DNA of 64,000 nucleotides from Escherichia coli (GTDB taxonomy: Bacteria; Pseudomonadota; Gammaproteobacteria; Enterobacterales; Enterobacteriaceae): NCBI RefSeq assembly GCF_045037415.1, contig NZ_CP173439.1. The stretch is one strand, 5' to 3'. The position numbers and the translations under genes were made by a program. Below are positions 6,965-57,891 of this stretch, piece after piece. The notes below the pieces were generated by a model. That model was not told where the DNA came from. It made no database searches and saw nothing but the letters and a program-made list of their open reading frames with translations. Within the stretch, counting starts at the first letter, position 1; the number at the start of each line of letters is the position of its first letter.

Positions 6965-8688
6965 TGAAAATAAAAAATGTCATTTGTGAATTAAAATCAG
7001 GGGCAAGTGCTTACTCTTCGGCCTACAAGCTCATACGCTCACTGTATCCCGCATTCACATTTTCTTTTATCGGTGTGTCCATTCTCTTTATTCTGGCTTC
7101 GGTTCTTGGTGCATTACTTCCTTATCTGCTCAAAAAGACAGCGGAGGCGTATACTTTCTCTGAAGGGATATTATCTGCATTTTTCCTGATCACAATGACC
7201 TACGCCGTCAGCTGGACAGTGACCGAAGTACTGAAGAATATCAGAGGCATTTTTTCTGCGGGAATTCTGGCACAAGCAGATGCAGCACTAACCAGTAACA
7301 CGATGGAGATTTTACTTTCTATTAGTTTCCGGAAACAAAAGGAATTTGAGCCGGCGGTCCTGGCTGCAAATATTGATCGTGGCGCGCAATCATTCAGTGC
7401 GCTGACATTATCTGTTTTCTGGACACTACTCCCAATTACTGTAGAAATCAGTATGGCTGTTTATTTTCTTTATCAGAGTCTGGGTTTTACTTATTCACTT
7501 ATTTTCTCAATTTCTGTTATAGGTATGATTTTTCTTGCCTTCAGCATAGCGATCTTTAGTCGTCATATCCATACCGATATAATGAATACTCAGAATGGGG
7601 TGTATTCTTATACGATTGAGCGACTTGCCATGCCGTTGGATATCCGAATTAATTCAGCTCATGCAAAAGAAAGAGTTCTTCGCCAGGAAATTCTTAATCA
7701 GTATGTTAATACAATTAAGCTGACCAATAAAAAAATGGGCTTTTTACTGTCACTACAGGCAGTAGCTGTAGGCGTATTGCTTGCTATATCCGTACTGGTT
7801 CTGGTTTTTTTTAAAAAAGCGTCTCATATTGGAACTGGTGACTTTATTATGATTGTGGGCTATATTAGCATGCTAACATTTCAGTTGCGCACAATAGCCG
7901 GAGCCAGCATTGACATTCAACGCCAGATTGTGTACCTGAAAATTCTTCTGGAATATAACAGTATGCATCCCGAAGGGGTTATCCCTGATACAGTAAGCTC
8001 CCGCAGCACTGAGCGTATTTTTGATGTGCGTAATCTTGGAGCTTTTGCTGACGGCAGACTCCTCTTTAATAATGTGAGCTTCAGGATCCATGAAGGTGAA
8101 ATGTTTGCACTTTCTGCGCCTTCAGGTTTTGGTAAATCCACAATTCTGCAATATTTACTCGGTCTTGATACCCCAACTGAGGGCGATATTTATTTCCGAG
8201 GATACCGGATTAACACAGAGTTGAGTGCGTCTATCCTGGAGGACGTTGCTGTTGTGCCTCAAAAAGCCGTTCTGGTGCAGGGAACTATTCGTGATAATAT
8301 TCTGTATGGAACCGATGACATTCTTCCCGATGATGAACTGTTTTGCATCCTGAATTCATTGGGGTTAATTAAAGAGGACTGCGGAGAACATTTCCTTGCT
8401 TTCCTAGACCGGGATATTAATCCTCTGGGTAGTGGTTTGAGTGGTGGAGAGATCCAGCGATTATGCATAGCCCGCGCCCTAGCCCGTAAGAAAAAGATTA
8501 TCGTACTTGATGAACCCACGGCCTCTATTGGCGAAGAACTCGCGATAAAGATCATTACCTATATCCGGCAGCATTGCCCTACCGTTATTATTACAACTCA
8601 TAATCCACGAATTCTGGAGCTCGCCGATCATTTTTTTGATGGTATGTCAAAGTCTTGCGTCATTGCTGGAGAAGGCAGAGACCAATAA
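6964..8688 (+). CDS. ABC exporter (fused permease-ATPase, McjD-like export/immunity, D protein)
   Basis: 574 aa; N-terminal multi-TM domain; Walker A APSGFGKST, signature LSGGEIQR, Walker B IIVLDEPT. Confidence 0.85.
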   Translation: MKIKNVICELKSGASAYSSAYKLIRSLYPAFTFSFIGVSILFILASVLGALLPYLLKKTAEAYTFSEGILSAFFLITMTYAVSWTVTEVLKNIRGIFSAGILAQADAALTSNTMEILLSISFRKQKEFEPAVLAANIDRGAQSFSALTLSVFWTLLPITVEISMAVYFLYQSLGFTYSLIFSISVIGMIFLAFSIAIFSRHIHTDIMNTQNGVYSYTIERLAMPLDIRINSAHAKERVLRQEILNQYVNTIKLTNKKMGFLLSLQAVAVGVLLAISVLVLVFFKKASHIGTGDFIMIVGYISMLTFQLRTIAGASIDIQRQIVYLKILLEYNSMHPEGVIPDTVSSRSTERIFDVRNLGAFADGRLLFNNVSFRIHEGEMFALSAPSGFGKSTILQYLLGLDTPTEGDIYFRGYRINTELSASILEDVAVVPQKAVLVQGTIRDNILYGTDDILPDDELFCILNSLGLIKEDCGEHFLAFLDRDINPLGSGLSGGEIQRLCIARALARKKKIIVLDEPTASIGEELAIKIITYIRQHCPTVIITTHNPRILELADHFFDGMSKSCVIAGEGRDQ

Positions 8689-8712: not shown

Positions 8713-8980
8713 TCTAATCGGGGTTGTACGCCGGAAACGCCGAAATTTCCGATACAGCGAATTTGTTGATTTTTGAAGCATGTTTGGCAGGTTTTGACGT
8801 GTACGTTTATGGTGCAGTAAGTGAGAATTTATTCGTACCAGCCATATGATACGTTACGGGCAGTGATTTTTCGCGCTAGACAGCTATTTCTTTGCTGTCC
8901 GGTTAACTGTGGTCTTACGTACAGGTTGCCGAGCATAAAATTTGTGCCTCCCGGAAATTTCGGCGTTTCCGGCGTACAAC
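8713..8980. mobile_element. miniature inverted-repeat element (~268 bp) with 32-bp perfect terminal IRs beginning GGGG
   Basis: GGGGTTGTACGCCGGAAACGCCGAAATTTCCG at 8713..8744 and its exact reverse complement at 8949..8980; no ORF between. Confidence 0.45.
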
Positions 8981-9034
8981 CCCAAATAAATTCAATTAAT
9001 TACCTAAACAAGGTGAGACTTTTAGAGGAAATGA

Positions 9035-9125
9035 GCGCGGAACCCCTCTTTCCACTGGTGGCGCAGGAAAGTTAACCGGCTGCCACCATGGGATGATGTG
9101 TAAACCGTGCAGGCATGTTTTTACG
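9035..9125. repeat. Inverted-repeat copy B (partner of 3075..3165)
   Basis: Contains an inverted duplicate of the 3' end of the 3116..3463 gene (reads ...SFHWWRRKVNRLPPWDDV*) plus its downstream sequence. Confidence 0.6.
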
Positions 9126-9137
9126 GGATGATGCTTT

Positions 9138-9169
9138 CATTTGGATATAGAGAATTATTGTACGTTCAG
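9138..9169. repeat. partial copy of a 38-bp Tn3-family-like terminal repeat (tttggatatagagaattattgtac...)
   Basis: Shares the core tttggatat.ga.aattattgtac with copies at 32001, 42145 and 56465. Confidence 0.4.
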
Positions 9170-9465
9170 CACAACAAACTTAATACTAATGTATGCATAC
9201 ATTAGCATTAACTACACATTTAAGACATTAACCATTAATAATGTGTATTATTACACAATATTACCCATCAGGAAGCACGTCGTCAGTATTAGAAAAAAAT
9301 TACAAACGCTCGCCGCAGGCCCAGCGACCGAACGTTAGTGAGCGAGGAAGCGGAAGAGTGTCAGGTCTGAATTGAGCACATACGCCAGAAATTATATAGT
9401 AAAAAGATATATGATTTTTACATTGCTCAGTAGATTGTAAAATGCTGCTGATTGGATATCTATAT

Positions 9466-9852
9466 CTAATTTAGAATAATGGCTTTAAGATGGTCAGAAA
9501 CCATCTTCCAGTTATATTCTCCTGTTGCAGCATTCAAAGCGATAATTTGCATTTCATCAAACGAAATACGTGAACTAATAATATGTACACCATTCCGTTT
9601 TAAAAAAACCTGTGCAACAAACAAGGCTGTTCGCTTATTTGCATCGTTGAAAATGTGACCACGAGCAATAGCAACTAAATACACGGCAGCCAGATCCATA
9701 ATATCTGTCACACCTTCATAATGATACATGTTCAAAACACGATGAATGATCGCGTCAGCGCGACCGGGTTCTGGCATACCCGCCACGCCACCATCACGCG
9801 AAATCAAGCGGTCATGAAACTCAATCACTTCCTGTGAACTAACGAATTTCAT
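9466..9852 (-). CDS. doc: Doc toxin (Fic/Doc family)
   Basis: 128 aa with the Doc motif HIFNDANKRTA; overall similar to P1 Doc as recalled; overlaps the phd stop. Confidence 0.8.
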   Translation of the reverse strand: MKFVSSQEVIEFHDRLISRDGGVAGMPEPGRADAIIHRVLNMYHYEGVTDIMDLAAVYLVAIARGHIFNDANKRTALFVAQVFLKRNGVHIISSRISFDEMQIIALNAATGEYNWKMVSDHLKAIILN

Positions 9853-10073
9853 CGCTTAGAAAGCTCCGTATAGGCCGTCCCATGACTTTGCATGATCTCA
9901 GCAAACTCAGCATCAAGAGCCGCTTTACGGTATCGTTCAAAAGCGTCTTTATCAACTAGTACAGCCGCGCCACCTTTACGGCGCTGAATCTCAACAGGCT
10001 GATTTTCATCAACCGCCAGCTCGAGCAACGAGGCCAGGTTATCGCGAGCATGGCTATAGTTACATGTAAACAT
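9849..10073 (-). CDS. phd: Phd antitoxin (Phd/YefM family)
   Basis: From internal Met: MFTCNYSHARDNLASLLELAVDENQPVEIQRRKGGAAVLVDKDAFERYRKAALDAEFAEI..., close to P1 Phd. Confidence 0.75.
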   Translation of the reverse strand: MFTCNYSHARDNLASLLELAVDENQPVEIQRRKGGAAVLVDKDAFERYRKAALDAEFAEIMQSHGTAYTELSKR

Positions 10074-10090
10074 AGTGCTTCCTCTTTGAG

Positions 10091-10111
10091 TTGTACAATT
10101 AAATTGTACAA
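10091..10111. promoter_or_regulatory. putative phd-doc operator: two TTGTACAA palindromes
   Basis: ttgtacaattaaattgtacaa about 20 bp upstream of the phd start; each 8-mer is self-complementary. Confidence 0.35.
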
Positions 10112-10260
10112 CAGTTCTGTTCAATATGAAATCACCGTAGTAAGGGGGGCGTGCCCATTTCCTCTAAAAGTCTCACCTTTATTATGTAATTAATTGAGTT
10201 TATTTAGAAAATGTTGCAATTTTAGCATCATTTTTTATTGTTCTTTTTAACCTGAAGTAG

Positions 10261-10297
10261 GGGGCCGCTTGGAATTCGGAAATTTTCCCACGCTAAG
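10261..10297. repeat. Tn21/Tn1721-subgroup-like 38-bp terminal IR remnant abutting IS21 copy 1
   Basis: GGGGCCGCTTGGAATTCGGAAATTTTCCCACGCTAAG resembles the Tn1721 IR as recalled (GGGG...AATTCGGAAA...ACGCTAAG). Confidence 0.4.
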
Positions 10298-10357
10298 TGT
10301 CAACGCCACGATGTTTGACCGTTATTTGCCATTTTCATGCCCGCTAAGATACTTTCG

Positions 10358-12327
<1,970 letters not shown>

Positions 12328-13153
12328 GTTGATGTCCTTTCTGGTGTGAGAACCTTAAGGAAACAACATGTTGGGTGGAGCGGACAATCCAAATGGTGAA
12401 TTACCGTCTTATATCACTGGCGCTGACACGGCGTAGAACCCCGAGAAAACGAGAGCATGAAAACCCCCAGGACAGTCACTGAATGGGGGACCAGCAGCGG
12501 TAAAATAACCGACATAATTTCATAATGATGCCTCCGTTAGTTATGAAGGTTTGCGGGCTGACTATACTGTTGGTGCCTGAGCAGAACTGAAGGATTGAGC
12601 GTGTTTCTGATGGAGAGTTCCACAGGTATCCACGAGATTGATTATGCCACCAGAAACACGCTCGGATGCGTTTTAACGTTACTTTTACTGGCAGGCAAGG
12701 TTTCTTTGTTTTATTTGTATTCTGACTCTCAGAATGACTCTGTTCGCTCCATAAATATTAAAATTATCAGGTAGAAGAACTCTCTTTTGTACAACTTAAC
12801 TGTGTCTTTATGGAAATGTTGTAAAGGTTCTTTTCTTTAGCTGTATCGTATTTAAATATACTTTTCTGTAAGTGGAATCTTTGCATAAGATAATAAAAAA
12901 CAGCAAATTATATTAATGGTTATGATATCCTGGGAACACCTGATTAACTAATAAGTTATTTTAATAAAAACATCTGCACTGGCAAATAATTGTACCCCCT
13001 TCAATAGGAATATTCTTATTTAATGGCCTTGTTTATATTCTAAAAATAAAACTGAGAAACTCATCATATATTTGGTAAGAAAACGCACCGGTGAACACTA
13101 TCATGAGGCTATACTGCACTTCCTCAAATTGGGATATTATGATGCATTGATTC

Positions 13154-28847: not shown

Positions 28848-28908
28848 GTGTCAACGCCACGATGTTTGACCGTTATTTGCCATTTTCATGCCCGCTAAGA
28901 TACTTTCG

Positions 28909-30878
<1,970 letters not shown>

Positions 30879-32000
30879 GTTGATGTCCTTTCTGGTGTGA
30901 GAACCTTAAGGAAACAACATGTTGGGTGGAGCGGACAATCCAAATGGTGAATTACCGTCTTATATCACTGGCGCTGACAAACAGGGATATTGCGACAATT
31001 CACAGCAATATCGTGCAGGAATACAACACCCTTAAAGGGTATAGCTGGAAATGGCTGGGTGGGGTGTCAGTGGCTTTTCTGGTTATGTTCTGTGTGCTCG
31101 GATGGGGAATGAAAACAATACTCGACAGGAACTACAACGCCACAGCGGCGGTGTATCAGAAAGTTGTGACACTGGAAGATAAACTGGTGGAGAAACCTGT
31201 CACGGGGAAGAGCCGGAAAAACTGACGCGCTTCGCTTGTCCAACGCCTCACGACCCGCGAAAGAATTTCGCGAACCGTTCACTGTTTTTTTCAATATGAT
31301 TCTGTCTGCTTTGGTCGATAAAGCAGACGATAGTATTCCAGCCTTCGTATATATAACGGTACGTGCTCATCAGTAAGAGCTGGCGGTATTGTGTTATCAG
31401 GGGGAAGTTTTTTCAGATACTCACGAAATGCCTGGCTTGATGCCATAAAATCTACAGCTGCATCGATAATATGTGGGATATTTTCATCTAATTTTGTCAT
31501 GATGATTGATCTGATATTATCACGGTTCGTGAATTATAGTATGTCACTATTATTTATGCTTTAGTGAACCAGAAAAAATCCCCCGTTGGTATAGGGGGAT
31601 ATGTAAGGAGAAATAACTTCGCAGGTGTTCTTGTTTGTATTATAACGTGAAAAGAATGCACGCAACTTAATTAATCTGCCGTACTTCCTTTCAGTTTTCA
31701 AGATAAGGTTTATAATAAAACATGGAATGGAAGCAAGCTTTAAGGTTTCAGCTCTAAAATTTTTAATATCTATTAACTAGCTAGTTGTTGTCCTTGTGAG
31801 CATGTTGTATATAAAAGCTAGGATAATATCCTGACCGGAGTATTCATATTCCTTATCCCCTCTGTGTTCTCAGAGGTTTTTTTCTGTATTTAATGATATG
31901 AGCTGGAATGCGATTCCGGCCCCCCCCGTTTACATAATTCTCCCTGACATACGGCACCGGAATCGCATTGATTTTGCATTGCTAATGTCTAACTGTGCTG

Positions 32001-32038
32001 GTGAATGTTGGGGGCAGTTTGGATATCGAAAATTATTG
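32001..32038. repeat. 38-bp Tn3-family-like terminal repeat copy (GGGGCAGTTTGGATATCGAAAATTATTGTACGTTAAGG)
   Basis: Starts GGGG, ends ...GTTAAG like Tn3-family IRs; related copies at 42145 and 56465. Confidence 0.45.
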
Positions 32039-32042
32039 TACG

Positions 32043-32389
32043 TTAAGGTTGTTTTTTGACCTTGTCGGGGTCCGCCTGCGGGCAGTAGAGATCATATAAG
32101 GTATTCAATAACGTCATGATGCGGTTATCCCCGATACGGTAATATACCATTTTACCTGCCCGTCGGGTTCGACCAGCTTCAGGCGACGCATGACACCCAA
32201 CTGCTGAGACAGGGTCGGCTGAGTGATACCGACCGCCGCTTCCAGCTCGGTCACATTCGCTTCCCCCTGGCTTAACTGACACATCAACAATAGCCGGTCG
32301 CTGTTGGCCAGTCCCCGTAGGACATCTGCTGCCCCCAGGGCTGCATTTTTCATATCAGTCTGACGTTTTGTGTCTTCATTCATGGGCAT
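32043..32389 (-). pseudogene. ArsR/SmtB-family regulator (BigR/YgaV-like), apparent frameshift
   Basis: HTH region (NVTELEAAVGITQPTLSQQLGVMRRLKLVE) in one frame and the expected wing (GKMVYYRIGDNRI...LYDLYCP) in an overlapping frame; break near a G-run around 32160..32200. Confidence 0.55.
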
Positions 32390-32510
32390 TGCTGGTTTCT
32401 TATATTATGTATTTTTATATAATATTGTTCAGTATAATGATAGTGGCGTAATTTTGCCACCGTGATCTTCAGGTCTGCAGCGTCCAGCTGGACCGGGTAA
32501 CTAATTATAT

Positions 32511-34208
32511 ATGGCAGATATTTTGCCCCGAGTGAACAGAGAGGATGTAATGAAAATAGTGATTGTTGGTGGTGTTGCCGGGGGAGCATCCGCTGCAGCC
32601 AGGGCTCGTCGGTTATCAGAGGATGTCAGTATTGTTGTGTTTGAGCGGGGAAGCGATGTCTCTTTCGCCAACTGTGGATTGCCTTATCATATAGGCGGAA
32701 AAATTCCGTTACGGCAGTCGCTGATTCTGAAAACCCCGGAGGATTTTAAATCCCGTTTTAACATAGACGTCCGTATCCGTCATGAAGTGATGTCAGTAGA
32801 CCCGGTTAATAAGATGGTGACGGTTAAAAATCTGACCTCCGGGGAGGTCTATACCGAAGAATGGGATCGTCTGCTCCTCAGTACCGGTGCCGCTCCGGTT
32901 GTTCCCCCCTTGCCCGGACTACAGGAAGCGGGTGTCTTTACACTGCGAAATCTTACTGACATGGATGCTATCCAGGCGTGGATTGAGCAACATAATATCG
33001 CTCACACCACGCTTGTCGGGGGGGGATTTATCGGGCTCGAAGTGATGGAGGCACTGAGCGAAAGGGGGATCAGTGTGACCCTGCTGGAGATGGGGGAACA
33101 GGTTATGGCTCCGGTTGATCCTGAAATGGCATCGGCCCTGCATCAGGAAATCAGGAGTCATGGCGTGGATCTGCGTCTCAGAACGGCGCTCACCGAGGTA
33201 CTGCGGACAGAGACGGGATTCCGCGTTGCACTGTCTGACGGTGGGTTTCTGCAGACCGACATGGTTATTCTCGCCATCGGGGTAAAACCTGAGAGCAGCC
33301 TTGCCACAGGAGCCGGGCTCGCCGTGGGTAAACGGGGAGGCATAAGTGTCAATGCCTGTATGCAGACAAGTATCCCTGACATCTATGCCGTGGGGGATGC
33401 AGTTGAAACACCTGACCTTGTCTTTCAGGAACCCGCTAATGTTCCTCTGGCAGGGCCAGCCAACCGCCAGGGACGCATTGCTGCTGATAATATGCTCGAT
33501 CGTCACAGCCTTTACCATGGCAGTCAGGGGACATCCATTTGTAAGGTATTTTCGCTGAGTATTGGCAGTGTCGGGGCGAATGAAAAGCAGCTGAAAGCCC
33601 ATGGTACCCGATACGAGAAGGTTTACGTCCATGCCGCTGATCATGCCAGTTACTACCCGGGGGCAACAATGATCAGTCTGAAACTGCTGTTCAGCCCCGA
33701 TACCGGTAAAATTCTCGGGGCCCAGGCGTCAGGGAAAAAAGGGGTTGATAAACGCATCGATGTCCTGGCTGTCGTACAGCGCGCGGGGCTTACCGTTAAC
33801 GATCTCGAGCATCTGGAGCTGACCTATGCTCCGCCTTTCAACAGTGCAAGGGACGTCGTTAACCAGGCTGGAATGGTGGCGGCAAATGTTATCAAGGGTG
33901 ATACGGTCATCTGTCATGTCCGCGATGTGTTACAACGGGAACCGGGCAGTTATTGTTTACTTGATATTCGTTCTCCTGCAGAACTGAAACAATTTGGTGA
34001 ATATCCTGACGCGCTATCCATCCCTCTTGATTCCCTGCGGGAGAATCTTGATAAGTTGCCTGAAGATAAAGAGATTATTATCGGGTGTCAGAGTGGTCTG
34101 CGGGGGCATGTGGCATACCGTATGCTTCAGTCTCACGGCTTCCGGACATATAATCTGAGTGGTGGTTTTATAACTTGGCAGGCGGTTACGGAATCAATGA
34201 GTCAATAA
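32511..34208 (+). CDS. CoA-disulfide/persulfide reductase with C-terminal rhodanese domain
   Basis: 565 aa; FAD-binding GGVAGG start, pyridine-nucleotide disulfide oxidoreductase core with redox Cys (SFANCGLPY), C-terminal rhodanese with active-site Cys (IIIGCQSGLRG). Confidence 0.85.
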   Translation: MADILPRVNREDVMKIVIVGGVAGGASAAARARRLSEDVSIVVFERGSDVSFANCGLPYHIGGKIPLRQSLILKTPEDFKSRFNIDVRIRHEVMSVDPVNKMVTVKNLTSGEVYTEEWDRLLLSTGAAPVVPPLPGLQEAGVFTLRNLTDMDAIQAWIEQHNIAHTTLVGGGFIGLEVMEALSERGISVTLLEMGEQVMAPVDPEMASALHQEIRSHGVDLRLRTALTEVLRTETGFRVALSDGGFLQTDMVILAIGVKPESSLATGAGLAVGKRGGISVNACMQTSIPDIYAVGDAVETPDLVFQEPANVPLAGPANRQGRIAADNMLDRHSLYHGSQGTSICKVFSLSIGSVGANEKQLKAHGTRYEKVYVHAADHASYYPGATMISLKLLFSPDTGKILGAQASGKKGVDKRIDVLAVVQRAGLTVNDLEHLELTYAPPFNSARDVVNQAGMVAANVIKGDTVICHVRDVLQREPGSYCLLDIRSPAELKQFGEYPDALSIPLDSLRENLDKLPEDKEIIIGCQSGLRGHVAYRMLQSHGFRTYNLSGGFITWQAVTESMSQ

Positions 34209-34486
34209 GAGATGAGGTGCCATACACATGGCACCTCATCTTCCAGATTCATTGAAAACGTATTATATGGAATAGAAATCTACAAAAATAATTAACACCC
34301 TGGATGGTACCCTATTGCGATAATGTGGACTGTTCAAAAAACAGGCTTACCGTACAATAATTCTCTATATCCAAACTGACCCCAATGTTCCTGAATGTAA
34401 ATCTCCGTACAAAGATATCGTTGAGTTTTATATAATTCATTGTTTTTATTGTGTTTTGTTTTTTTTGGTTGTGCTGGTTTGTAGTT

Positions 34487-34512
34487 ATAAAAAACCCCTG
34501 GGAATCCAGGGG
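34487..34512 (-). terminator. possible Rho-independent terminator (minus strand)
   Basis: GC stem cccctgg/ccagggg with a 4-nt loop, followed on the minus strand by a T-run. Confidence 0.3.
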
Positions 34513-35571
34513 TAGGTAAGGAAAACAAATGATACTCAGTTAGTGTTGCACTTTAAACGGGTTGAAGTATAACTCGTATTAAATGAGATGTTGAAAATAA
34601 GTGAAAACCATTGCTGGTTGCAATAGGGCAGTATGCGTAAAAAATAAATTTGTGATGCTTTTCAAAAAAACAATTAATACATGAATATTACAGCTCATAT
34701 ATTACAGTTTATAAAAAACTGTGTTTTATCTATTACATAGAGAAAAATTCTTATCCTGAGCTGTGAACTTGGTTGTTTCGTTTGATATATATCTTTGTAA
34801 ATGTGGTTTATTATGCGGGCATTTTTTATTGAGTATTGAATCAGAATAAGTGATGCAGCTAAATTTATTTGCGTAACTATTTCATTGTCAATATTCTGAC
34901 TCAATCTGACACCTATCGTTTCTCTTGGATTCCCCACTTTTGTGGTTTTTTATCCGGAACGGGATAGTGCCAGTTGTTTTTTATCAGCCTCAGGGTATTT
35001 TGGGGCGGTTGCGAACATTGACGCATTCCACAACTAAAAAAAATTTCTCACAGACTCTGATTCTTGCCCCGACCCTTGGTCGGTTTTTTTTTGTCCTGGC
35101 GAAACGTGAAGCTCTGAAACAGGAAACCCCGTCAGAGCGCCACGCACCAGGGGAGAAAACTTGTCGTTTTGAGCCGTTCGGTGTTCAGAACGCACGAAAC
35201 CGATCGCACATCGCTTTCGTGCATAGTTATGCAACGCCCTGAAAACGATTCTGACGCGTTTTTCTGGTTTGGCCTGGTGTTTTCTTGTCTTTTTGCGTTT
35301 TTTGCGCCAGAAAGCGATTGAGGGCGTTTTACATGGTACGTACAACGGGAGTTATGGTAAATGGATCGGGTTTTCGGGAAGGTTCGACAGGATTTGCCGT
35401 TGGGTGTAGTGTAAGCGACTGAAAAACAAACGCCCCTGAAATCATGTCCAGATCCGGCAGAACCAGCCTCATGCGCAGTTCTGGCTGGTTTTTGACGTTG
35501 ATCGCGAGGGGGCAGCGATTGACTGGAGCGACCGGAACGCTCCCGCGCCGAACATCACCGTAAAAAATCCT

Positions 35572-36138
35572 GTGAACGGTCATGCTCACCTGCTCTACGC
35601 GCTCAATATCGCCGTGAGAACCGCGCCGGACAGCTCGGTTAAGGCGCTGAAATACGCCGCTGCGATTGAACGTTCGCTGTGTGAGAAACTTTGTGCTGAT
35701 GTGAACTACAGCGGACTGATTTGTAAAAATCCGTTCCACCTGGAATGGCAGGTGATGGAGTGGCGAGAGGAAGCCTATACCCTCGATGAACTGGCTGATT
35801 ATCTCGATTTGAGCGCCTCAGCGCGCCGTAGCATCGATAAACATTACGGGATGGGGCGAAACTGCCACCTGTTCGAAATGACGCGCAAATGGGCTTACAG
35901 GGCGATTCGTCAGGGCTGGCCCGAATTCTCACAGTGGCTTGATGCCGTGATTCAGCGTGTCGAAATGTACAACGCATCGCTTTCCGTTCCGCTTTCACCG
36001 CCTGAATGTCGGGCTATTGGCAAGAGCATTGCGAAATACACGCACAGGAACTTCACGCCGGAAACTTTCGCACAGTATGTGGCTGATACGCACACATTAA
36101 CGTACGTTTTCGTTCCATTGGCCCTCACCCCCCGATAA
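35572..36138 (+). CDS. ColE2-type replicase / PriCT-domain Rep protein, probably 5'-truncated or frameshifted
   Basis: Conserved sequence continues ~45 codons upstream of the annotated start (..FWLVFDVDREGAAIDWSDRNAPAPNITVKNPVNGHAHLLYAL..) with no start codon and stops just beyond; C-terminal PriCT-like region (ECRAIGKSIAKYTHRNFTPETF). Confidence 0.5.
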   Translation: MNGHAHLLYALNIAVRTAPDSSVKALKYAAAIERSLCEKLCADVNYSGLICKNPFHLEWQVMEWREEAYTLDELADYLDLSASARRSIDKHYGMGRNCHLFEMTRKWAYRAIRQGWPEFSQWLDAVIQRVEMYNASLSVPLSPPECRAIGKSIAKYTHRNFTPETFAQYVADTHTLTYVFVPLALTPR

Positions 36139-41804: not shown

Positions 41805-42067
41805 TCGGGGGGAAAAAACATGGGATAAAAACTCCGTTATTCCACTAAACTGGCCGGACTAGGAAAAGCAAACATCTCTGTCCTGCCGGTACGCCTGTTA
41901 CGCCGCTCCATGAGGCTGAGGAATCTCCAGAAAACGAGACAGGCACAGCATTGTACGATCAACTGATTTGTGCCAATAATTAAATGAAATCACAGCTATG
42001 CCTGTTCATGGGGTTCTAGGCCGGAACCCCAGATTTTTCCGATTGTTTGTTTTCTAACTGATTATTC

Positions 42068-42105
42068 AGTAGTTTTAGAGGGCTGACGCTCAGTGGAACG
42101 AAAAC
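42068..42105. repeat. Tn3 (TnA)-type 38-bp terminal IR remnant
   Basis: ...CTGACGCTCAGTGGAACGAAAACTCACGTTAAG identical to the Tn3 IR over 33 bp. Confidence 0.55.
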
Positions 42106-42144
42106 TCACGTTAAGAGGTTTTGACTATGATAAAAGTCAAAGTA

Positions 42145-42182
42145 GGGGTGAGTTTGGATATGGAAATTATTGTACTATAAGG
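42145..42182. repeat. 38-bp Tn3-family-like terminal repeat copy (GGGGTGAGTTTGGATATGGAAATTATTGTACTATAAGG)
   Basis: Same family as 32001 and 56465; followed by ~85 bp that recurs at 12437..12520. Confidence 0.45.
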
Positions 42183-42326
42183 AGAGCATGAAAAACCCTG
42201 GGGCAGTCACTGAATGAGGGACCAGCAGCGGTAAAATAACCAGCATAATTTCTGCGTGGTCGATTTTTATACCGTGACAGGCTGTTTTTTATACTTGCAC
42301 CGATTCCCGGGCACACTTAGCCTGTG

Positions 42327-56304: not shown

Positions 56305-56464
56305 GGGCCACCGCCAGTTTTTCTTTCACCACCGCCTCAAGGGTCTCCCACGATACCGCGCCGGGGATCATCTCGTCGCCAATGATGGTTGCCGGCGTCC
56401 CCTGAACGCCAACCAGCCGGGCGAGTTGCAGATTGGTGCTCAACGTCTCCATGCTTTTCTCATC
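56294..56464 (-). pseudogene. scsC: DsbA-like ScsC, C-terminal fragment only
   Basis: ...GVQGTPATIIGDEMIPGAVSWETLEAVVKEKL is a DsbA-family C-terminus; the 5' part is replaced at the 38-bp repeat at 56465. Confidence 0.5.
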
Positions 56465-56503
56465 GGGGTCAGTTTGGATATAGAGAATTATTGTACTATA
56501 AGG
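56465..56503. repeat. 38-bp Tn3-family-like terminal repeat copy (GGGGTCAGTTTGGATATAGAGAATTATTGTACTATAAG)
   Basis: 38 bp from GGGG to TAAG; forms the junction that truncates scsC. Confidence 0.5.
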
Positions 56504-56757
56504 GCTTCCCCGGCATGTCAACGCCGGTGTTTACGGTTTCTGTCTGCACTATAGTAAAAAAATAAAGGGGAGAGACTGCGGTACTATAAACGGTCATGAT
56601 GAATCGTCATCGATTCGGACCCTGATGAAAGACGCTCGTGAGGCTCTAGTTCGTTAGTCGGGTACACTTGCCCTGTACAATAAGCAGATATACCTCACGG
56701 GGTCTAACCCTTTATCATCAACGAGTTGCAGATCAGATGGTCATACAGCTTTGTACT

Positions 56758-57071
56758 TTAGCTGGCTGAGTACAACCTGAAATCATCACCGTAATGCAAT
56801 GATGCCCAGCACAGTCTTGCATTTTTGGCAGCGATGGCAACAACAGCGCGCCAGTATCCTCTGCGTTCGACCAGTGAGCAGACCCAACGACTGAATAAAT
56901 CAGTCCTTTTCTCCGCCCCGATCAGTACCGAGCGGGCACCCTGAACCAGAAGTGTTCTCAGATACGAATCGCCAGCTTTCGTTATCCTGCCAAGCTTCGA
57001 CTTTCCGCCGCTGCTGTACTGCGATGGTGTCAGTCCCAGCCAGGCTGCCAGCTGGCGCCCATTCTTAAAAT
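56758..57071 (-). pseudogene. IS110/IS1111-family transposase (IS4321/IS5075-like), C-terminal fragment cut by IS26
   Basis: ...NGRQLAAWLGLTPSQYSSGGKSKLGRITKAGDSYLRTLLVQGARSVL is the conserved IS110-family C-terminus; reading frame enters the IS26 IR. Confidence 0.6.
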
Positions 57072-57891
57072 GGCACTGTTGCAAAGTTAGCGATGAGGCA
57101 GCCTTTTGTCTTATTCAAAGGCCTTACATTTCAAAAACTCTGCTTACCAGGCGCATTTCGCCCAGGGGATCACCATAATAAAATGCTGAGGCCTGGCCTT
57201 TGCGTAGTGCACGCATCACCTCAATACCTTTGATGGTGGCGTAAGCCGTCTTCATGGATTTAAATCCCAGCGTGGCGCCGATTATCCGTTTCAGTTTGCC
57301 ATGATCGCATTCAATCACGTTGTTCCGGTACTTAATCTGTCGGTGTTCAACGTCAGACGGGCACCGGCCTTCGCGTTTGAGCAGAGCAAGCGCGCGACCA
57401 TAGGCGGGCGCTTTATCCGTGTTGATGAATCGCGGGATCTGCCACTTCTTCACGTTGTTGAGGATTTTACCCAGAAACCGGTATGCAGCTTTGCTGTTAC
57501 GACGGGAGGAGAGATAAAAATCGACAGTGCGGCCCCGGCTGTCGACGGCCCGGTACAGATACGCCCAGCGACCATTGACCTTCACGTAGGTTTCATCCAT
57601 GTGCCACGGGCAAAGATCGGAAGGGTTACGCCAGTACCAGCGCAGCCGTTTTTCCATTTCAGGCGCATAACGCTGAACCCAGCGGTAAATCGTGGAGTGA
57701 TCGACATTCACTCCGCGTTCAGCCAGCATCTCCTGCAGCTCACGGTAACTGATGCCGTATTTGCAGTACCAGCGTACGGCCCACAGAATGATGTCACGCT
57801 GAAAATGCCGGCCTTTGAATGGGTTCATGTGCAGCTCCATCAGCAAAAAGGGATGATAAGTTTATCACCACCGACTATTTGCAACAGTGCC
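57072..57891 (-). mobile_element. IS26, complete, 820 bp
   Basis: GGCACTGTTGCAAA terminal repeats at both ends; intact tnp26. Confidence 0.95.
57124..57828 (-). CDS. tnpA: IS26 transposase Tnp26
   Basis: MNPFKGRHFQRDIILWAVRWYCKYGISYRELQEMLAERGVNVDHSTIYRWVQRYAPEMEKRLRWYWRNPSDL... (234 aa from the internal Met). Confidence 0.95.
   Translation of the reverse strand: MNPFKGRHFQRDIILWAVRWYCKYGISYRELQEMLAERGVNVDHSTIYRWVQRYAPEMEKRLRWYWRNPSDLCPWHMDETYVKVNGRWAYLYRAVDSRGRTVDFYLSSRRNSKAAYRFLGKILNNVKKWQIPRFINTDKAPAYGRALALLKREGRCPSDVEHRQIKYRNNVIECDHGKLKRIIGATLGFKSMKTAYATIKGIEVMRALRKGQASAFYYGDPLGEMRLVSRVFEM

Follow-up and report, generated by a model that had tools for sequence, protein, structure and literature searches.

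A 264-bp stretch of a mosaic plasmid, bounded by perfect 32-bp inverted repeats (IRs) and lacking a transposase gene, is probably a TIME (Tn3-derived inverted-repeat miniature element) with the design IR-res-IR, derived from a Tn3-family transposon and mobilised in trans, and the 38-bp GGGG...TAAG repeats found elsewhere on the same DNA are ends of the MITESen1 lineage. Both were found in a 64,000-nt stretch of Escherichia coli contig NZ_CP173439.1 (RefSeq assembly GCF_045037415.1), the whole of which we call the window. The original prediction had proposed Tn3-derived miniature elements mobilised in trans. That proposal is supported by an autonomous transposon that shares the element's IRs and res region, by the many contexts in which the element occurs and by a 6-bp duplication at a relative.

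Annotated records that match the window over long stretches identify it as a mosaic IncF plasmid of E. coli, of the virulence type. It contains ccdAB, a lasso-peptide/microcin cluster, phd-doc, two IS21 copies, senB and TonB-dependent receptors, and further scsCD-like genes and an FTR1 iron system, then a region with IS26, tet(A) and mer. The window is strewn with ends from at least five Tn3-family transposon lineages; those at 12429-12442, 36097-36133 and 42010-42049 came to light by scanning it with a panel of Tn3-family IRs, and all positions are collected in the table. As predicted, no Tn3-family transposase or resolvase accompanies them: tblastn with three transposase lineages and two resolvases found no detectable TnpA or TnpR anywhere in the window (E ≤ 1e-3).

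Table. Tn3-family elements, ends and target duplications in the window, and contexts of other copies of the 264-bp element
Feature	Position or locus	Strand	Remark
Probable 264-bp TIME (IR-res-IR), "IR-A type"	8720..8983	.	no transposase
Left terminal inverted repeat GGGGTTGTACGCCGGAAACGCCGAAATTTCCG	8720..8751	+	32 bp
Putative res-like core	8800..8927	+	homologous to tnpA-tnpR intergenic region of autonomous relative
Right terminal inverted repeat	8952..8983	-	exact reverse complement of left IR
MITESen1-type IR (IR-B), inner 25-27 nt	9140..9166	+	outer 8 nt lost; mosaic junction upstream of phd-doc
Complete 38-bp IR of a third lineage (IR-C, Tn21/Tn1721-like)	10260..10297	+	IS21 (10298-12428) directly after
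IR-A-type end, outer 14 nt GGGGTTCTACGCCG	12429..12442	-	cut by IS21 right end
AATGTT, left target-site duplication copy	32004..32009	+
Non-autonomous Tn3-family cargo element	32010..34383	.	2374 bp, no transposase
38-bp IR of cargo element	32010..32047	+	37/38 identical to tnpA-proximal IR of the L014/L015 autonomous transposon
38-bp IR of cargo element, inverted partner	34346..34383	-	identical to MITESen1 IRL
AATGTT, right target-site duplication copy	34384..34389	+
Tn1000 (gamma-delta)-type IR	36097..36133	-	positions 7-37 exact; right boundary of Col156-type segment 30980-36095
Solo IR of a lineage related to IR-A (GGGGTTCTAGGCCGGAACCCCAGATTTTTCCG...)	42010..42049	+
Tn3 IR remnant	42080..42115	+	positions 6-38 exact, 2 nt missing near tip
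Diverged 37-nt IR-B-type end	42145..42181	+	inner part ...TACTATAAG, as at 56465
Solo IR-B end	56465..56502	+	first 32 nt identical to MITESen1 IRL
264-bp copy	L006		beside colicin E5-like genes
264-bp copy	L007		E. coli B chromosome, back to back with IR of 10260 type
264-bp copy	L008		three bases from Tn1721 IR
264-bp copy	L009		ETEC H10407 p666
264-bp copy	L011		directly after resolvase gene, beside parA/parG
264-bp copy	L013		interrupted by 286-bp miniature element of 10260-10297 IR type

The 264-bp element had been predicted at 8713-8980; its 32-bp repeats are real and form an exact inverted pair, but the true coordinates are those in the table. The 32-nt sequence occurs exactly twice in the window, as this pair, and gave no match in 100 shuffles. 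The element starts 31 bp downstream of an ABC-transporter gene ending at 8688. Its interior of some 200 bp, which the original prediction described as free of ORFs, holds just short mechanical open reading frames of 41-84 aa, and no gene is called inside the element in the two annotated records fetched for the window's context. A search of Rfam for structured RNA gave no meaningful match, folding of the interior is no better than that of shuffled sequence (z = -0.39), the element lacks a terminator-like site, and its promoter-like matches are near chance level. Across copies the interior is about as conserved as the ends. The element has several of the properties by which a TIME is recognised—it is short (about 50-500 bp) and carries no transposase gene, its IRs are related to those of a Tn3-family transposon (L016:7001-11116), and it is found in multiple genomic contexts.

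That transposon, retrieved by searching with the end sequence, is an autonomous relative of 4116 bp on an ETEC CS6 plasmid. It has 32-bp IRs (GGGGTTCTACGCCGGAACCGCCGAAATTTCCG) and a 5-bp target duplication, TGATC; its 1015-aa TnpA (WP_001595216.1) scores 776 bits against the NCBIfam Tn3 model NF033527 (cut-off 500), and it also encodes a 192-aa serine recombinase (TnpR). The IRs of the window copy are identical to those of the transposon at 30 of 32 positions, and the left IR of the sister copies L008 and L013 at all 32 (at L013 only the left end survives). A 22-nt core of the IR is spread across many Proteobacteria. Of the 120 loci retrieved with this core, 44 have a TnpA as well; its identity to the L016 protein is 21-94%, and in 39 cases it is at least 61%. 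The complete 4116-bp transposon is present in 21 of 5426 E. coli genomes (0.4%), and in some strains it lies on both the chromosome and a plasmid, a pattern that suggests recent movement. The original prediction had suggested a search for full-length parent transposons; besides this one, an autonomous transposon with a 995-aa TnpA, described below, was found.

The relationship extends from the ends to the core. In the L016 transposon tnpA and tnpR are 149 bp apart, and window positions 8800-8927 align to 130 bp of this spacer, with 91 of 122 positions identical and an alignment score of 85 (shuffles 27.1 ± 4.5, maximum 51), about 13 s.d. above the shuffles. The conserved blocks of the core are present in six parent transposons, and among them is an inverted pair of the TGTCCG...CGGACA type. 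Where tnpA and tnpR of a Tn3-family transposon are divergent, the res site lies in the spacer between the two genes. Because the core is homologous to this spacer, and the spacer holds res in the family, we read the element as IR-res-IR; it is from a sequence similarity of about 75% only that we infer a res function for the core.

The 38-bp GGGG...TAAG repeats (IR-B) belong to a different lineage. Alignments assign them to the termini of MITESen1-lineage elements and of the autonomous parent. When the window is compared with the MITESen1 sequence given in Table S2 of PMC13367494, positions 34383→34309 match MITESen1 positions 1-75 at 92%, and positions 56465-56496 match MITESen1 positions 1-32 at 100%. 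The autonomous IR-B transposon (L014 and L015) was found on K. pneumoniae and E. hormaechei plasmids; its 995-aa TnpA (WP_000124023.1; 1129 bits) is encoded by a gene that ends inside the IR, and a resolvase gene follows. The repeats are thus terminal, the ends of MITESen1 and of this transposon, and not segments of a transposon interior. The MITESen1 core aligns with the tnpA-tnpR spacer of the same transposon (score 80 versus 27 ± 4.5), and therefore the MITESen1 design would also be IR-res-IR, with the 995-aa-TnpA transposon as its parent lineage. IR-B-type ends match at least about 5000 plasmid records. No complete 256-bp MITESen1 is present in the window, where only its left-end 75 bp (34309-34383) and isolated ends of 25-38 bp match.

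Copies of the 38-bp repeat had been predicted at 32001, 42145 and 56465, with a partial copy near 9138, all of them scattered. The copy at 56465 is full and the partial copy is there, as the inner 25-27 nt of the repeat; the copy placed at 32001 is real but lies at 32010-32047, that at 42145 is a diverged 37-nt end, and a copy at 34346-34383 on the minus strand had been missed. The description of all copies as scattered was wrong: the copy at 32010 and its missed partner bound one 2.4-kb cargo element with a target duplication.

This element (32010-34383) has what marks a non-autonomous Tn3-family cargo element, namely passenger genes between inverted IRs, no transposase and a target duplication. 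Its IRs are 34/38 complementary. It is built from a 59-bp tnpA-end terminus, 2167 bp of cargo and a 148-bp terminus, the last 75 bp of which match the left end of MITESen1. The cargo comprises a BigR-like ArsR repressor gene and a CoA-disulfide-reductase-like gene, and it also occurs without IR-B ends in pEc78, at 93% identity. The last eight codons of the repressor gene are supplied by the transposon terminus. In the window this gene (32114-32389, minus strand) has a 1-nt deletion that leaves a 91-aa open reading frame, compared with 115 aa in L001 and L003, and it is either a pseudogene or the product of a sequencing error.

The segment that hosts the cargo element, 30980-36095, is 99.5% identical to the Col156-type 7.46-kb plasmid pMG828-4 (NC_008489.1) and is integrated in the IncF plasmid, with IS21 copy 2 (28849-30979) on its left and the Tn1000-type IR on its right. 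In all 27 plasmid records that share the flanks of the cargo element, the two flanks match separately, at two places, which is the picture expected with the element between them. A joined-flank search of 72,556 plasmids found no empty site for it.

The remaining ends stand alone or are truncated, and several lie exactly at rearrangement junctions. The original prediction had named two such junctions, and both are as it described: a scsC/DsbA-family gene is truncated exactly at 56464/56465 by the solo IR-B end, and the boundary of IS21 copy 1 falls at 10297/10298. Decayed ends are also found at 12428/12429 and 36095/36097. The Tn1721-like IR claimed at 10261 and the Tn3 IR remnant claimed at 42068 were both located, at 10260-10297 and 42080-42115, respectively. 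The prediction had further offered decayed ends as recombination hotspots; decayed ends do sit at junctions, but that they acted as hotspots, and are not scars, is something we could only infer.

Homology to a common backbone segment breaks off at the truncated IR-B end at 9140-9166. In pSTEC17_183-a (L139:3265-4792), phd-doc lies between IR-B-type ends, with a Tn3 IR inserted in the right one, and comparison of these sequences suggests that phd-doc may be a passenger of a transposase-less Tn3-family element. The phd-doc module of the window is also bracketed by a 56-nt inverted repeat pair (8984-9039 and 10150-10205, 89% complementary) that begins immediately after the 264-bp element; the region of the right arm, 10143-10259, has a homologue in pAA-like plasmids, where the DNA overlaps a resolvase-type gene. 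We considered 8720-12442 as a TIME-COMP, with the 264-bp element at one end, the identically oriented 14-nt IR-A fragment at the other and phd-doc as cargo, and set it aside: it has no flanking duplication, and the putative second copy is mostly gone.

The two IS21 copies (10298-12428 and 28849-30979) are 99.9% identical and share their orientation. Neither has a target duplication, and cross-pairing their flanks restores none; deletions or exchanges therefore came after insertion. L139 also contains the cluster of three IRs at 42010-42181, in one block. Directly behind two Tn3-family ends of different kinds, at 12443-12520 and 42182-42260, the window has the same segment of about 75 bp (GAGAGCATGAAAA...CAGTCACTGAATG...GGTAAAATAACC); because the second copy adjoins an IS91-family transposase remnant, the segment may be a terminus of IS91 type. 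At 56503-57084 (minus strand), 255 bp beyond the solo IR at 56465, there is a C-terminal fragment of an IS110-family (RNA-guided) transposase, cut by IS26; the region of this fragment has no Rfam match. IS110-family relatives such as IS5075 target Tn21-type IRs.

The IR-C type also bounds a 286-bp TIME at L013 (L013:2682-2967), a miniature element that is inserted in the 264-bp copy there. At L006:1400-1751 lies a hybrid that joins an IS101-like left part to the right 115 bp of the 286-bp element, and its composition suggests exchange between miniature elements.

Could the solo and truncated ends have been active recombination substrates, through one-ended transposition or res × res exchange, and have stitched, for example, the Col156 segment into the IncF plasmid? 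They lie exactly at 56464/56465 and at 36095/36097, the latter being where the pMG828-4-like segment stops; ends of different IR types lie side by side again and again (L007, L008, L013, L139 and window 42010-42181); L006 has a miniature element that is a hybrid of IS101 and IR-C; and direct repeats are mostly lacking. Most junctions, however, also have remnants of IS21, IS26 or the IS91 family, which alone cause adjacent deletions and offer a simpler account. Moreover, reciprocal 5-bp flanks between copies of the 264-bp element, the signature of res exchange, were not seen in the small sample examined, and the window has no transposase or resolvase. We regard active ends as unlikely. We hold just as doubtful the broader proposal that res-bearing miniature elements and solo ends are portable recombination sites that assemble IncF mosaics by way of unresolved cointegrates, one-ended transposition and res × res flank swaps. 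If true, it would explain the position of these sequences at module boundaries, their clustering, hybrids such as that in L006 and the near-absence of kept target duplications.

The distribution of the 264-bp element bears on whether it has moved. Relatives are present in 526 of 5426 complete E. coli genomes, 353 of which hold at least 80% of its length, with a median of one copy per genome and with 389 places on plasmids versus 207 on chromosomes; a further search found relatives in 197 plasmid records. With boundaries unchanged, the element occurs in at least seven different contexts on plasmids and at one chromosomal locus; besides the neighbours given in the table, an IS91 remnant is among them. 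Relatives about 75% identical to it exist in Serratia and Arsenophonus. The original prediction had suggested looking for 5-bp target duplications at other copies: the Arsenophonus relative (L039) is flanked by a 6-bp duplication, ACAGTT, but there is none at five other complete copies (four in E. coli, one in Serratia), nor is there one at the window copy. That duplications are missing is consistent with any of three events: intramolecular transposition, recombination between copies and adjacent deletions.

Three further candidates were set aside. What looked like a larger element with the same IRs in NZ_CP133874.1 is only a colicin S4 plasmid dimer with a solo IR. CP061268.1, apparently a record with two copies, contains a large inverted duplication that is probably an assembly artefact, and the context is that of the window. 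Pseudomonas elements of 227/228 bp have IR-A-like ends, and TATAC flanks a 228-bp one with the IR-A type of end; in their cores they show no similarity to the 264-bp element.

Might the 264-bp unit instead be the non-mobile remnant of a full transposon, deleted in situ and spread with the surrounding plasmid DNA? About 120 records have a copy at least 99% identical to that of the window, and those examined with a 100%-identical copy share its neighbourhood. The window copy lacks a target duplication, as noted above, and the joined-flank search of the same 72,556 plasmids found no empty site for the element, so that insertion at exactly the window's site is not directly demonstrated. Against this stand the identical boundaries in unrelated neighbourhoods (those of L006, L007, L008 and L011 in the table, and that of the IS91 remnant), the relatives in Serratia and, with its ACAGTT duplication, in Arsenophonus, and the internal junctions, which are the same throughout and would not be expected to be so after independent in-situ deletions. 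We therefore think an in-situ remnant very improbable.

Slightly less probable still is a functional site that the plasmid keeps for its own use and not primarily a parasite—for multimer resolution by a plasmid resolvase, as a small RNA, or as a hairpin with a regulatory or terminator role behind the microcin-export gene—since, although the res-like core is conserved about as much as the ends, one copy lies directly downstream of a resolvase gene beside parA/parG and the window copy begins 31 bp past a stop codon, the Rfam, folding, terminator and promoter results given above offer it nothing, the resolvase at L011 is only 25% identical to the cognate TnpR, and resolution needs no GGGG-tipped terminal repeats identical to those of a transposon.

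Tn3-family transposons move by a paste-and-copy pathway through a cointegrate, followed by the action of resolvase at res. If the 264-bp element is a TIME mobilised in trans, as we prefer, a cognate Tn3-family transposase would bind its two 32-bp terminal repeats and, acting in trans, would copy it into AT-rich targets by replicative transposition via a cointegrate, which a cognate serine resolvase would then resolve at the element's own res site. For the transposase, the likely source would be the 4.1-kb tnpA-tnpR transposon, which some E. coli carry and whose ends match. The 2.4-kb cargo transposon would have inserted, with its AATGTT duplication, into a Col156-type small plasmid that was later taken into the IncF plasmid, and the other IR-B copies would be solo or truncated ends left after later insertions and deletions (IS21, IS26 and others).

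This outline draws on the established Tn3-family pathway and on experiments with Pseudomonas TIMEs and IS101. By analogy with these, the elements would move only with a cognate TnpA in trans, and the 264-bp element, given the cognate TnpR, could resolve the cointegrates that it forms. Mobilisation in trans, res function and present-day activity are predictions from sequence. Besides the missing duplications and the lack of an empty site, two facts count against the outline: with 0.4% of genomes, the cognate transposon is much rarer than the miniature element, and the IRs of the window copy differ at 2 of 32 positions from those of the candidate transposase donor.

Annotation pipelines do not call such elements. 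None of the 264-bp copies examined in the fetched annotated records bears a mobile-element label, and a repeat present in about one in ten complete E. coli genomes has gone unrecorded; junctions in virulence and resistance plasmids are therefore left unexplained. Naming the 264-bp element, and treating the 2.4-kb sulfur-stress cargo element as a transposition unit, would give a better reading of plasmid mosaics. Recognition of these sequences would also flag those able to move neighbouring genes once a cognate transposase arrives. Conceptually, the established picture of TIMEs and mobile insertion cassettes (MICs) gains nothing from these sequences, which conform to the known biology of Tn3-family derivatives and are ordinary plasmid junk.

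For the 38-bp family a catalogue entry exists, that of the MITESen1 lineage, whereas the 264-bp element appears to be an unnamed and undescribed member of the TIMEs that is common in E. coli. Our literature search found its IR sequences in no paper, and no description of it among papers on MITEs in IncF plasmids. ISfinder lists only MITEEc1, MITEKpn1 and MITESen1 for Enterobacteriaceae, and only four TIMEs are named in that family, the commonest in 2.3% of genomes (PMC13367494); the 264-bp element is absent from those four and is more frequent in E. coli. Published TIMEs are mostly single-copy and plasmid-borne, often without direct repeats (PMC4133298; PMC13367494).

In design, the 264-bp element resembles IS101 (209 bp, from pSC101) and TIME244 (PMC13367494; PMC4133298). 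All are shorter than 300 bp, lack a transposase, and have GGGG-tipped Tn3-family IRs and a res-related core; all are plasmid-borne, usually single-copy and often without direct repeats. The element has, however, no sequence similarity to IS101, TIME244, IMU or MITESen1. Unlike those of IS101 and TIME244, its IRs are 32 bp long and lack the ...ACG.TAAG inner motif, and its lineage also differs, the 1015-aa TnpA being only 21% identical to the MITESen1-lineage TnpA. In experiments, Pseudomonas TIME1-4 and the TIME-COMPs produced 5-6-bp duplications, and a related transposase acting in trans could move them (Szuplewska et al. 2014, PMC4133298); we liken the 264-bp element to the Pseudomonas TIMEs, which include a 262-bp form, by size and description (PMC4133298).

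The other elements of the window also have counterparts. The 38-bp family is the end of MITESen1 (ISfinder, 256 bp), but here it bounds a 2.4-kb cargo element or stands alone. Cargo-bearing forms like 32010-34383 are known among the mosaic non-autonomous Tn3 derivatives of Pseudomonas (PMC4133298). The TnXax1 MICs of Xanthomonas (PMC4337579) have, as here, passenger genes between IRs without a transposase, together with 5-bp duplications and solo IRs nearby. TnXax1 was considered and rejected as the IR-A lineage, because its IRs are about 92 bp long with a GAGGG tip, in contrast to the GGGG-tipped IRs of 32 and 38 bp in the window.
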